Source of the DNA: Minisyncoccota bacterium
GTDB lineage: Bacteria; Patescibacteriota; Minisyncoccia; Phycocordibacterales; Phycocordibacteraceae
Assembly: GCA_041664865.1 (NCBI GenBank)
Contig: JBAYJU010000001.1
Location: 1 to 56,358, forward strand
DNA: 56,358 bases
Direction: 5' to 3'
This document shows, one piece after another, positions 1 through 3,487 of the stretch. The notes beneath the pieces are model-generated. The model had not been told where the DNA came from and made no database searches. It saw only the letters and a program-made list of their open reading frames with translations. Numbering within the stretch: the stretch's first letter is position 1; each line of letters begins with the position of its first letter. Made by a program: the position numbers and the translations under genes.

Positions 1-122
1 TCAAACTCCTGTACATCAGCGCGTTTTCTCTTCCCTTTCACGAAATCTTTCCACGCATCAAGAAGATTCTCGACTGAGATGATATGCTCGTATGTATGAA
101 TGAATCGGATTCTTTGAGGCGA
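1..122 (-). CDS. Reverse transcriptase, N-terminal fragment (DGR-type; continues beyond window start; start codon unresolved)
   Basis: The minus frame with codons 3-5, 6-8 ... 120-122 reads SPQRIRFIHTYEHIISVENLLDAWKDFVKGKRKRADVQEF. This is the ENLLxAWxxxxKGKR-type N-terminus I recognise from DGR / group-II-like RTs. It sits next to avd and a TR/VR pair. This frame has no ATG/GTG/TTG between the stop at 189-191 and the motif. Confidence 0.6.
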
Positions 123-131
123 CCCCCCCCC
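123..131. repeat. C9 (G9 on minus strand) homopolymer at the RT 5' end, directly upstream of avd
   Basis: Read directly: ga-ccccccccc-gaggatg. It is the only long homopolymer I noticed in the window. Confidence 0.9.
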
Positions 132-135
132 GAGG

Positions 136-507
136 ATGTTGCCGGTGCTTGAGTGGATTAAACATGCGTATATCTTGTGGTATGGATTCTATCAGACCAT
201 ACCGAAGACCCATCGACACACTCTTGGCGGGAAAGTAGATGCGGAGTTTGTGGGACTTATCGAAGCGGTCGCGAGTGCCAGCTTCCTGTCGCGAGGTGAG
301 AAGCAACCATGGGTGCGACTCGCCATACGCAAGCTCGATACCCTAAAGGTGTTTTTGCTCATACTCTGGGAAACCAAATCACTTGATACAAAAAAATACA
401 TCGCGCTGTCTATGCCGCTTGATGAAGTCGGCAGAATGCTCGGCGGATGGAACGGGCAACTCACAAAGCAAAACTCGCCAGCGCAACAAGGCGCGGGCGA
501 GAAATGA
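136..507 (+). CDS. avd: DGR accessory variability determinant (Avd), four-helix-bundle / 23S-rRNA-IVS protein family
   Basis: 123-aa ORF with ..YQTIPKTHRHTLG.. and a C-terminal ..EVGRMLGGWNGQLTKQN.. basic tail, the pattern of Avd-type four-helix-bundle proteins. It lies between the RT and the TR. A GTG at 145 is an alternative start (GAGG at 132-135). Confidence 0.75.
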   Translation: MLPVLEWIKHAYILWYGFYQTIPKTHRHTLGGKVDAEFVGLIEAVASASFLSRGEKQPWVRLAIRKLDTLKVFLLILWETKSLDTKKYIALSMPLDEVGRMLGGWNGQLTKQNSPAQQGAGEK

Positions 508-513
508 AGAGAT

Positions 514-625
514 TTGCGGGAAGCAGGTACACCGGCAAGGAACCAATTGTCGTTCCAGTCGTTGTCGTTGCGATTGCAATTCACGTTCCGCTCGTCGTTC
601 CAGCGGTTGAACGTGAGGTAGCAAT
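514..625 (-). repeat. DGR template repeat (TR)
   Basis: 112 nt, identical to 975-1086 (offset 461) except at 12 positions. At all 12 this copy has T on the plus strand, i.e. A on the sense strand. The sense strand is AAC/AAT-rich (FNRWNDERNVNCNRNDNDWNDNW) and is preceded by in-frame TAG TGA. Confidence 0.85.
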
Positions 626-647
626 GTGTGGAGTGCCATCTATATCA

Positions 648-854
648 CTACCCATTGAAGCCTTGTGCGATCTCAGAGTTGTCTGCGGTGGTTCCGCGGT
701 CTTCGGCATCATAATGCCAGAGCACTTCACACCAAGTATCTTCATTTTTTGAAGTGTCTGCGTGCATCCTCCATTTGAAACCATAATCACAAATGTTCTC
801 AATGCACGGATACTGGGTTCGGTAGCGGGAAACCGTAATCGCCCGCGTATTCAC
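648..854 (-). CDS. Small hypothetical ORF (68 aa, GTG start) upstream of TR; possibly a decayed copy of the target C-terminal domain
   Basis: ORF track. The Cys/Trp pattern YPCIENICDYGFKW..W..W loosely parallels YPNCTQWGDNCYLTFDRW..W..W of the target. It ends with tandem stops TAG TGA (648-650, 645-647), and the same frame continues into the TR. Confidence 0.25.
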   Translation of the reverse strand: MNTRAITVSRYRTQYPCIENICDYGFKWRMHADTSKNEDTWCEVLWHYDAEDRGTTADNSEIAQGFNG

Positions 855-874
855 CTACTACCAATCACAGTGTA

Positions 875-912
875 CCAAAAGAAAACAGCATATCGCAGAG
901 CGATATGCTGTT
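875..912 (-). terminator. Rho-independent terminator of the DGR target gene
   Basis: 13-bp perfect stem aacagcatatcgc / gcgatatgctgtt (884-896 / 900-912) with loop aga. On the minus strand it is followed by ttttcttttgg. Confidence 0.7.
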
Positions 913-970
913 GAAAGAAGAAAGGGTTAAGAATCCAAGGGCAAGTTCTAAGTTGCCAGAGGTACAAGTA

Positions 971-1564
971 CTACTTGCGGGAAGCAGGTACACCGGCAAG
1001 GAACCAATAGTCGTCCCAGTCGTGGCCGCTGCGATCGCAACACACGCGCCGCTCGTCGTCCCAGCGGTCGAACGTGAGGTAGCAATTGTCACCCCACTGC
1101 GTACAGTTAGGGTACGCATCGGCGAATGCCGAATCGGCTTCGTTCACGGCCGCTGTAGCTCGCGGATCCGGTACGAGTCCGTACTGCGCGAGGAACGCAG
1201 GGACATCTTTCGCCGGCACAAAGCGCTTGGTCGGGACGAAGTGGACATCCACTTCCTCGCCCTCTCCAATCGGCATCGTGGCTAGCACATCTTTGTCGAC
1301 ATACTGCTTACGGCCCGTGGCGTCAATGACTTTTTGCGGGGTGCGAGTGCGGTCGACGCGAACATGGCGTTTGATGGTTCCCTCCGGGAACGCCATTGCA
1401 TGAACCGAAGACGCCCGGTTCTTCACCGCTTCGGCGAAAAGTCTGATTGCATCTTCTGTGTTCTGGATCGCCCATTGGCGACACTCAGTCGACATGATGC
1501 AGAAGTGGTGTTGATGTTCAGTTAATGCCCCAGCCAACTTGGAAATCTGTTGTTGTTCACTCAT
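971..1564 (-). CDS. DGR target (variable) protein, 197 aa, no signal peptide; fold unassigned
   Basis: Intact ORF with AAGGAG upstream of the ATG at 1562-1564. Its last 37 codons are the VR (..CYLTFDRWDDERRVCCDRSGHDWDDYWFLAGVPASRK). Confidence 0.85.
   Translation of the reverse strand: MSEQQQISKLAGALTEHQHHFCIMSTECRQWAIQNTEDAIRLFAEAVKNRASSVHAMAFPEGTIKRHVRVDRTRTPQKVIDATGRKQYVDKDVLATMPIGEGEEVDVHFVPTKRFVPAKDVPAFLAQYGLVPDPRATAAVNEADSAFADAYPNCTQWGDNCYLTFDRWDDERRVCCDRSGHDWDDYWFLAGVPASRK
975..1086 (-). repeat. DGR variable repeat (VR), 3' end of the target gene
   Basis: Partner of 514-625. There are 12 substitutions, all opposite TR adenines, changing 10 codons (TR N,N,N,N,N,N,D,N,N,N -> VR D,D,R,C,D,S,G,H,D,Y). 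The sense-3' 32 nt (975-1006) are invariant. Confidence 0.85.
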
Positions 1565-1621
1565 GGCTTTCTCCTTTATGAGAGTGTTTTTACAACGCTG
1601 TTCAAGCTAGCCCGAATGGGT

Positions 1622-1690
1622 TTCGCCACAGCAGAAAATCCCTAGGGCTGCCTGCCCCGAGCTAGTCGAGGGGCTTTCTGCTGTGGCGAA
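1622..1690 (-). promoter_or_regulatory. Long hairpin in the 5' leader of the DGR target gene
   Basis: 16-bp perfect stem ttcgccacagcagaaa (1622-1637) / tttctgctgtggcgaa (1675-1690) with a 37-nt GC-rich apical part. It lies between the putative promoter and the ATG at 1564. Confidence 0.4.
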
Positions 1691-1726
1691 TGCAAGCTTA
1701 GTCTCAAAGAGCTATGTACTGAGTGT

Positions 1727-1755
1727 ATTATTGCACGATACTATATTTCTGTCAA
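1727..1755 (-). promoter_or_regulatory. Sigma70-like promoter for the DGR target gene
   Basis: Minus strand TTGACA (1750-1755), 17-nt spacer, AATAAT (1727-1732). Confidence 0.4.
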
Positions 1756-1775
1756 ACTCACCCGAAGCGCTACAC

Positions 1776-2843
1776 CTATTCAAGCTTCCGTAATGCGAGG
1801 CCTACTGCTACCGCAAACTCAGGACCTATCTCCTCGAGTATTGGGCGCATGAATGCTGGCGCTGAAGTCTTCACAAAAGGGTCTGCCACTCGCACGTCAA
1901 TTGAGAATATCTTTTTCGCATATGCCCCGAGCGACTTCGTGACGCCGCCACCTCCAGTGAGCACGATCGAGCTGATCGACTTATTGTGCGATGTCTCATA
2001 CTGCGTCACCACTCGATGCGCCTCTGTGAAAATGCGAGAGAACACTAGCTCTAGGCTCTCATGCGCACCATCACCCTCCATCCCTTTCTCTTTCTTGACT
2101 GCCTCGGCTCTAGGAATAGAAACCCCGCTCGATACGGAAATAGCACGCGTTATGTCCTGACTACCGACACTGATAGAGTGCGAAAGCGCCACGATGCCAT
2201 GCTCGACTACATAAATCTTTGTCGATGCAGCACCAATATCGAGCACCATGACAGGCTTCACTGGCTCGTCTACCACGGCGCGTATGGTACTGAATATCTC
2301 TATCTCGTAGAAACTTGAAGAGAGTCCAGCGCCTGCAACTACCGACTGCAGGAGAGAAAGCTCGTCGTTGTGAACCGCAACAATAAGTACATCGACGGTA
2401 CTCTGTCGTTCAACATTCTCCTGAGGGCCGATTTTGGGCACGATGAACCAATCCAGCTGCACTTCGCTTATAGGCACAGGGATATATTTCCTAGCCTCTA
2501 GCTCGATGACCGTCTTCTGCTCTTTTGGGTCCTTCCGATACGGAAGTTCCACAAGAGAGAGTAGAGAGCGCGAGAATGGGATCGAGACTCCGCAACTCGT
2601 CGTAGTCACTTTCGCTTCACGCAAGAGATCCTTCAATGTCTCGACGACTTGCTCTTGCGAGAGACTCGTCGCCTGACCTACGTCGCCGCCGGCATATGGG
2701 CCGAGCGCGAGCTCGCCATATGTCTCGAGAACCGCCTGCCCCTTTTCCTTACGGAGCTGTACGACCTTCAGTGATGAAGATCCTATGTCCACACCCAAAA
2801 CACTCTTCTCCTGTTTAGAAAATAGAAAATCTAGGAACGCCAT
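1776..2843 (-). CDS. pilM: Type IV pilus assembly protein PilM (actin-like ATPase)
   Basis: N-terminus ..SVLGVDIGSSSLKVVQL.. and overall actin/FtsA-like PilM pattern; 355 aa. Confidence 0.8.
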   Translation of the reverse strand: MAFLDFLFSKQEKSVLGVDIGSSSLKVVQLRKEKGQAVLETYGELALGPYAGGDVGQATSLSQEQVVETLKDLLREAKVTTTSCGVSIPFSRSLLSLVELPYRKDPKEQKTVIELEARKYIPVPISEVQLDWFIVPKIGPQENVERQSTVDVLIVAVHNDELSLLQSVVAGAGLSSSFYEIEIFSTIRAVVDEPVKPVMVLDIGAASTKIYVVEHGIVALSHSISVGSQDITRAISVSSGVSIPRAEAVKKEKGMEGDGAHESLELVFSRIFTEAHRVVTQYETSHNKSISSIVLTGGGGVTKSLGAYAKKIFSIDVRVADPFVKTSAPAFMRPILEEIGPEFAVAVGLALRKLE

Positions 2844-2857
2844 GGGAAAATGATACC

Positions 2858-3487
2858 ATGTTCCGACTCATCGACATCATATTCCCGCCCCGCGCGGATG
2901 AGATCGTAATGCGAGACACTTCTGATGATGACTTCCTCTCGCTCGTCTCTCCACGGCTCGTGCCGGCTACACGACCTGGGACAGTAGCGCTACTACCCTT
3001 CTATCACCCGTCTGTTCGATCCGCAATTCACGAAGCGAAATATCATGGCAATGAACGCGCGCGTCGGCTCCTAGCGCTCGCTCTTGCCGAATATCTGTGC
3101 GATTCCGACGATGTAGGACATCGGAAGTCCTACATCGTGCCGGTGCCACTCGGGAAAGCTCGGCGCAGAGAACGAGGATTTAATCAGGCAGAGGAGGTCG
3201 CGCGGCGTGCAATCCATAACCTCGGGAAAGAAAGCACACAGAGATTCAAACTCGATACCAGCCTGCTCGTGCGCACTCGCGAGACTGTCTCTCAAGTCTC
3301 GCTACCGAGACTCGAGCGCGAAGAAAACATGCGCGGCGCCTTCGGCGCCGCGCATCCCGCCGACCCTACCAGCACATATCTGATTATCGACGACGTGCTC
3401 ACCACAGGTGCCACGCTCCAAGCAGCAATCGACGCGCTCAAATCTGCTGGTGCCACCAATATCATCCCGCTCGCCTTAGCGCACTAG
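2858..3487 (+). CDS. ComF-family phosphoribosyltransferase-like protein
   Basis: C-terminal PRTase motif YLIIDDVLTTGATL and GFNQAE, typical of ComFC; 209 aa. Confidence 0.75.
   Translation: MFRLIDIIFPPRADEIVMRDTSDDDFLSLVSPRLVPATRPGTVALLPFYHPSVRSAIHEAKYHGNERARRLLALALAEYLCDSDDVGHRKSYIVPVPLGKARRRERGFNQAEEVARRAIHNLGKESTQRFKLDTSLLVRTRETVSQVSLPRLEREENMRGAFGAAHPADPTSTYLIIDDVLTTGATLQAAIDALKSAGATNIIPLALAH

Follow-up and report, generated by a model that had tools for sequence, protein, structure and literature searches.

The reverse transcriptase (RT) gene of a diversity-generating retroelement (DGR) cassette from an uncultured groundwater bacterium is separated from its only canonical start codon by a homopolymer, C9 on the plus strand and G9 in the sense of the RT. 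This tract is real, conserved and length-unstable. We propose that it acts as a slipped-strand on/off switch for the RT, which would be phase-OFF as assembled, and we hold this reading with about even confidence. The anatomy of the junction, the frame arithmetic, the conservation of the tract, the length differences between identical relatives and the occurrence of an ON form in a relative are direct observations. From these sequences we infer that the tract switches in this population and that no RT is made in the OFF phase.

The DGR occupies the start of the window, i.e. the whole stretch of 56,358 bp that was analysed, in the order VR, TR, inverted avd and RT (Table 1). Within the 112-nt repeat, the TR and the VR of the window differ at 12 positions, all 12 of which are TR adenines. 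The avd gene is located between the TR and the RT, on the strand opposite to the RT, as in architecture B3. This TR-(avd)-RT architecture represents 90% of the DGR set of the candidate phyla radiation (CPR) (Wu et al. 2018, PMC5758913).

The remainder of the RT was taken from the JGI contig L001, with which the window part of the RT is 100% identical. Over window 1-1360, the two sequences are 99.3% identical with no gaps. In L001, the RT exhibits an intact ORF of 340 codons after the tract that contains both DGR RT motifs, LGNLTSQ and YADD, and an RVT_1 domain is recorded for the RT in the database annotation. Gene callers shorten it to 182 aa (JGI) or 296 aa (Logan), and the Logan contig encoding the shortened RT call ends before reaching the tract. 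As gene callers shorten or miss the RT and avd, such cassettes may be mistaken for defective ones in DGR surveys.

Table 1 Features of the DGR cassette and of the avd/RT junction in the window.
Feature	Position	Strand	Comment
DGR reverse transcriptase (RT), N-terminal 40 codons (SPQRIRFIHTYEHIISVENLLDAWKDFVKGKRKRADVQEF...)	1..122	-	gene continues past the window start
35-codon ORF from ATG 165-163	58..165	-	crosses the tract out of the RT frame; joins the RT at G8 or G11
Upstream ORF from ATG 84	84..152	+	crosses the tract; 22 codons at C9; in frame with avd at C8 or C11
ATC (Ile of conserved R-I), candidate non-canonical RT start	108..110	-	12 nt after the tract
Ser codon (TCG) immediately following the tract	120..122	-	TTG in sister lineages
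C9 (+ strand) / G9 (RT-sense strand) homopolymer	123..131		avd/RT head-to-head junction
avd, 123 aa	136..507	+	Pfam bAvd, E = 5.9e-10; own ATG 4 nt after the tract
Template repeat (TR)	514..625	-	112-nt repeat; sense strand same as RT
Target gene	971-1564	-	carries the VR
Variable repeat (VR)	975..1086	-	at the 3' end of the target gene

On the minus strand, the RT frame reads *NPYHKIYACLIHSSTGNILGGGSPQRIRFIHTYEHIISVENLLDAW..., with the upstream stop at 191-189, and no ATG, GTG or TTG is present in this frame between the stop and the conserved IISVENLLDAW motif. Translation from the minus-strand ATG at 165-163 would use the neighbouring frame, reading MFNPLKHRQHPRGGVASKNPIHSYIRAYHLSRESS* through the G9 tract to a stop at 60-58. 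In silico, a tract of G8 or G11 leads the same ATG to read MFNPLKHRQHPRGG(G)SPQRIRFIHTYEH... (SPQRIRF...) into the RT, while with G7, G9, G10 or G12 it is not joined to the RT. The first-pass annotation of this DNA had described the C9/G9 tract, the RT frame lacking a canonical start before the conserved motif, the ATG in the neighbouring frame and its stop, and the joining of both frames by removal of one G. All of this was confirmed on recheck, with G11 as a second joining length. Frame arithmetic likewise bears out its statement that, as assembled, the only canonical start of the RT is offset from the RT frame by one base. The GAGG (132-135) and the ATG (136) of avd adjoin the tract, as it had also noted. 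As avd has its own ATG after the tract, its frame in the window is independent of the tract. Two properties of a contingency locus are found at this junction: a G/C run of at least 7-8 nt in the 5' coding region, here between ATG 165-163 and the RT core, and, in silico only, a run length that alters the frame.

In the mechanism that we propose, the tract would be one copy of a conserved, slippage-prone simple repeat located in the short avd/RT junction of the TR-(avd)-RT Patescibacteria DGRs. In the sub-lineage of the window, the RT would have lost the start codon on its own side of the tract (TCG for TTG). The only remaining canonical start would be the upstream ATG at 165-163, and the tract would then be read as Gly codons. 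With G8 or G11, the full RT would be produced. With G9, as assembled, or G10, as in another assembly, the canonical start would yield a peptide of 35-42 residues and no RT. Replication slippage that adds or removes one G:C pair would toggle RT synthesis and, along with it, adenine mutagenesis at the target gene, and each change would be heritable yet reversible.

The relatives compared were 80 RT loci of 61-74% identity from species-representative genomes, all of them Patescibacteria-type MAGs, which together with L001 make 81 loci. A run of G6 to G14 is present at the same head-to-head avd/RT junction in 74 of the 81, with a mode of 10 (length 6 in 1 locus, 7 in 5, 8 in 8, 9 in 16, 10 in 28, 11 in 11, 12 in 2, 13 in 2 and 14 in 1). 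In the window, C9 is the only G or C run of at least 8 nt, and about 0.5 runs of at least 9 nt are expected by chance. The single tract is therefore within chance, but its presence at the same junction in that many homologous loci is beyond it. The order VR, TR, inverted avd, tract and RT is common to all tract-bearing loci, and in about 70 relatives the VR/TR mismatches are located almost only at TR adenines. Seven loci do not present a G run. Three of these (L052, L055 and L057) have (GT)n or (GA)n at the same spot, and such a replacement by other repeat types argues, at the level of sequence comparison, for selection on repeat instability and not on a G-specific motif. Two others (L040 and L070) show poly-C/N junk at the contig end, which is typical of assembly trouble seeded by the run. 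Two paralogous DGR cassettes of one Kaiserbacteria MAG (L012 and L026) share the same sequence after the tract and carry G10 and G9, respectively.

In the literature searched, we found no paper naming a repeat or homopolymer at the DGR avd/RT junction, or linking DGRs to a repeat switch. The word 'homopolymer' occurs 0 times in Wu et al. 2018 (PMC5758913), in which no repeat at the avd/RT junction is mentioned, and a homopolymer or repeat at this junction is likewise unmentioned in Roux et al. 2021 (PMC8144416). As far as this search reaches, the pairing of a DGR with a contingency repeat appears to be new.

In most relatives, the RT has a start codon of its own after the tract. An in-frame ATG, GTG or TTG follows the tract in 56 of 74 loci, and consequently the tract cannot gate the RT frame there, which counts against a switch family-wide. 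In 19 loci, an ATG or GTG is present exactly 13 nt after the tract. The earlier claim that the tract marks the point where RT translation must start does not apply to the family, where most RTs start after the tract, at an ATG 13 nt downstream or at a TTG directly after it. The comparison of orthologous DGRs, which the first-pass annotation had called for, gave a two-sided outcome: the tract is widespread and a G8 form exists in one relative (L108), but most relatives have a canonical RT start after the tract.

The tract could instead be a non-coding regulatory element of the RT, i.e. a promoter spacer, a part of an extended -10 or an SD-like G-rich site. The RT would then start after the tract, in the window most likely at ATC 110-108, and the tract length would tune transcription or initiation and not the frame. 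Such an element is consistent with the presence of TANNNT directly after the tract in 25 of 74 loci, compared to a background of 1.4%, with 13 different hexamers, and with the exact 13-nt spacing of ATG or GTG in the 19 loci mentioned above, which is the geometry of leaderless or short-leader promoters. In addition, five loci devoid of a canonical start (L005, L010, L012, L026 and L029) present a homologous ATT or ATC at exactly 13 nt after the tract, the corresponding distance being 12 nt in the window. The frame relation between the upstream sequence and the RT is not conserved, and G9 is common to several diverged lineages, which also fits such an element.

However, in the window the tract is followed by TCGCCT, with no -10-like box, and a sigma-70 scan of window 1-1700 gave no promoter. 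A sigma-70 promoter of the porA, opc and fim type, with the repeat in its spacer (-10 beside the tract, -35 at 16-18 nt), was not found in the window, nor was a consistent -35 at a fixed distance. The TGGTAA and TGGCAA words, considered as a fixed -35 box upstream of the tract, were rejected, since they encode Leu-Pro in avd and their distance varies. Translation initiates very weakly at ATC and ATT, and AUG is required on leaderless mRNAs, which counts against a start at ATC. The (GT)n or (GA)n in place of poly-G at three loci is at odds with a G-specific motif, and L052 has a normal GGAGG site ahead of the ATG after its repeat. We consider a purely regulatory, non-coding tract unlikely, though not negligible, as an explanation for the window. 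Apart from this, L034, L064, L067 and others, about a quarter of the related loci, exhibit a common design made of the G-run, TANNNT, 7 nt and ATG. Its sequence suggests leaderless RT mRNAs with a putative -10 box abutting the repeat.

The switch, which remains our preferred reading, was examined in the sub-lineage of the window. A pattern scan with 'G-run T[CT]G CCT CAA AGA AT' yielded seven contigs, which were analysed with five further loci. In L100-L103 and L106, a TTG is present directly after the tract, so that a canonical start is available, and the tracts vary from G7 to G11. In the window/L001, L104, L105, L107, L108 and L109, this codon is TCG. Owing to the TCG in place of the TTG of its sisters, the RT of the window depends on a start upstream of the tract. 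Among the loci with TCG, L108 has a G8 tract and the homologous ATG in frame with the RT, MLNSFQDWQKSRGGSPQRIRL; the G8 in-frame fusion predicted by the first-pass annotation thus exists in a relative. In L104/L086 (G9), an own in-frame ATG is located 18 nt before the tract, and the protein P0014 is in frame from an upstream ATG through GGGSPQRIRF. The window/L001, L107 and L109, all with G9, and L105, with G10, have no in-frame RT start. The RT ORF is intact in all complete contigs of the sub-lineage. Genes that are intact across diverged lineages, in frame in some and out of frame in others, are the picture expected of a phase-variable gene, and our best reading is therefore a tract that gates the RT and that was assembled in the OFF state. 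Against this, G9 is common to three diverged lineages (the window, L107 and L109), a sharing that would be surprising if the tract drifted freely.

The same data bear on a decay of the RT, in which the start would have been lost by the change from TTG to TCG, the tract being an inherited relic with no switching. The lack of an in-frame canonical start would agree with decay, and so would the shortened products given by the JGI and Logan gene callers. However, the 340-codon ORF is intact with both of its motifs, the TCG is common to at least six diverged lineages with an intact RT ORF in each complete contig, and every difference between the VR and the TR is at a TR adenine. Because the ORFs are intact and the VR changes are adenine-only, we judge decay to be very unlikely.

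Tract length differs between relatives that are otherwise identical. Six contigs from different assemblies (L094-L099), with an identical RT (P0076) and identical flanks, have tracts of G11, G10, G9, G10, G11 and G10, respectively. In this P0076 lineage, tracts of C9 and C11 each place an upstream ATG in frame with avd, and C10 leaves avd with no upstream start. In the same way, L100 and L101, which both represent the nearest sister lineage of the window and have identical flanks, carry G10 and G11. In the G11 form of the L101 type, both upstream ATGs are in frame, giving MLNPLKHRQKSRGGGLPQRIQF for the RT and MRELDSLRQPPPPRLLPVL for avd. It was also observed that in L094-L099 the RT start codon lies within a CATG palindrome, and that the opposite-strand ATG, which overlaps it by two bases, opens avd at C9.

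For the population of the window itself, the lengths were obtained from contigs and not from reads: C9 in the window, C9 in L001 and C10 in a Logan contig from run X1 with a depth of 14. Run X2 has two contigs whose ends coincide with the tract, and the following contig starts 8 nt further on. As these lengths come from contigs, they represent a disagreement between assemblies and not a proof of within-sample heterogeneity, and the difference between C9 and C10 could be assembler noise at a homopolymer. A 9-long tract is also present in L107, L109 and a contig of a relative in run X6. The idea, already put forward in the first-pass annotation, that slippage would switch RT and mutagenesis on and off is consistent with the length variation of relatives between identical flanks and with the G8 ON form of L108; for the own population, the comparison is one of contigs. 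Three further look-ups concerned the tract. The P0003 contigs were uninformative on its length, the look-up being by exact protein and P0003 including the tract; a first metagenome pattern scan with the exact tract flanks gave no match; and a single RNA run gave no sequence covering the avd/RT junction.

A consensus error, with a true tract that is uniformly G8 or G11 and an RT starting at ATG 165-163, was considered in view of these lengths. Homopolymers of 9-10 nt are error-prone, the assemblies of the own population disagree (C9, C9 and C10) with a fourth one breaking at the tract, and the junk sequence of L040 and L070 is at the tract site. On the other hand, C9 was obtained in two independent assemblies from different samples, no assembly has C8 or C11, and the length of 9 recurs in L107, L109 and the run X6 contig. 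Since two assemblies give 9 and none 8 or 11, and since diverged relatives also have 9, such an error is highly improbable. The first-pass annotation had considered that a homopolymer sequencing error explains the tract equally well, which does not hold for a conserved feature of the family that is C9 in two independent assemblies and C8 in none.

The tract can also affect the avd side of the junction. Among 72 loci, the avd start on its own side of the tract is ATG in 2, GTG in 6 and TTG in 37 (the Leu of the conserved L-P-V), and 27 have none. Family-wide, avd lacks a start on its own side more often than the RT does, and at least one of the two genes is without such a canonical start in 43 of the 72 loci. 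We tested upstream ORFs at the tract for in-frame enrichment, for both the RT and avd, and found none: of the 18 loci needing an upstream RT start, only 4 have an upstream ORF that enters the tract in the frame of the RT. The phases of avd and RT in the 72 loci are distributed as 17 with both in frame, 37 with one base too many and 18 with one too few. Given this lack of in-frame enrichment, a simple model in which both genes always read through the tract is unsupported. The low proportions of in-frame states, for the RT (4/18) as for both genes together (17/72), count against the switch as well.

The predominant phase raises the question of a programmed recoding. At G9, the ribosome would shift +1 on GGG-G, or the RNA polymerase would drop one G, and a small constant fraction of the translation from ATG 165-163 would enter the RT; the same state could serve avd in relatives at CCC-C. 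The phase needing exactly +1 on both strands is indeed the commonest one, in 37 of 72 loci and in 19 of the 28 G10 loci, and the window, L107 and L109 are all in the +1-requiring phase at G9. Reading of CCC-C by tRNA-Pro is a textbook case of +1 slippage, and ribosomes stall at Pro-Pro-Pro. However, the remaining two phases make up half of the loci, so the offset is enriched and not fixed. GGG-G and CCC-C are slippery, but no stimulator is evident (rare or stop codon in the A site, upstream SD-like site), the next codon being GTC. Polymerase slippage is weaker on G/C runs than on A/T runs, and DNA-level length differences between identical relatives offer a simpler route to expression. Recoding of the RT at G9 appears quite improbable to us.

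A more extended form of the switch would be a DGR master switch selected across the clade, in which one unstable junction repeat would gate both Avd and RT and render hypermutation stochastic and heritable. The tract would perhaps also act as a two-way +1 recoding site, CCC-C for avd and GGG-G for the RT, giving a low constant level of both proteins. We advance this form as a speculative proposal to which we attach little credence.

The closest known systems are the poly-G/C contingency loci of Campylobacter jejuni, Neisseria, Haemophilus, Helicobacter and Bordetella. In these loci, as here, a G:C run of 8-11 occupies the 5' end of a gene or lies within a divergent promoter region, sequences that are otherwise identical differ in its length by plus or minus one, and frame arithmetic sets the on/off state. 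They differ in that the genes that they gate are surface or restriction-modification genes, whereas here it would be a targeted hypermutation enzyme, for which switching is predicted. In addition, the tract described here lies between two head-to-head genes, can affect both, and is conserved throughout an entire clade of DGR cassettes from uncultured Patescibacteria. The DGR of the Bordetella phage BPP-1 (mtd-avd-TR-brt) shares with the window the (I/L/V)GxxxSQ and YxDD motifs of its RT, Avd as a partner and the adenine mutagenesis from TR to VR. However, its avd is codirectional, its TR adjoins brt, it lacks a repeat tract where the RT begins, and no stochastic switch is known for it. As for the +1 frameshift sites at Pro codons (CCC-U/CCC-C; CUU-UGA in prfB), the P-site tRNA can re-pair one base forward, and the commonest phase in the family needs +1. 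In contrast to these sites, neither an A-site pause codon nor another stimulator was seen here, and the phase is not fixed across the family.

To our knowledge, DGRs are the only natural machines for targeted protein hypermutation in prokaryotes. If it is a switch, the conserved slippery repeat at the RT and avd starts would offer a simple answer to how DGR activity is restrained in the largest environmental DGR clade. The mutator would be off in most cells and turned on by rare slippage. In that case, the phase of the tract should correlate with VR heterogeneity within populations.

Other features were observed around the cassette. Rfam and tRNA scans of window 1-3000 gave no match. On the minus strand at window 884-912, a 13-bp GC-rich hairpin followed by a T run is located 59 nt 3' of the stop of the target gene, and it is likely a terminator separating the target transcript from the TR transcript. 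In runs X1 and X2, the region 703-864 between this hairpin and the TR is covered at a word depth of about 200, compared to about 14 nearby. It matches the same site, just upstream of the TR, in other DGR loci with 81-87% identity, higher than that of the RT gene, and relatives of it occur in an aquifer metatranscriptome at a depth of about 38. This region may represent a conserved 5' portion of the DGR RNA or a small conserved minus-strand ORF at 648-854.

At window 1-30, run X1 presents contigs of 5360 nt (with the RT) and 1257 nt, each at a depth of about 8, which join a contig of depth 14. From these contigs, the window start is probably a fork of the assembly graph, and the RT region probably occurs in the sample as two strain variants. 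At the other side of the cassette, the identity with L001, which is 99.3% through the RT, avd, TR, VR and the 3' part of the target gene, drops to 80% or becomes unalignable in window 1360-1760 (L001 6963-7370). The neighbour genes beyond this divergence point also differ, pilM being present in the window and a folD-like gene in L001. Judging from this comparison, either the DGR cassette would be present in two different contexts or the 5' half of the target gene would have been exchanged between the window and L001.
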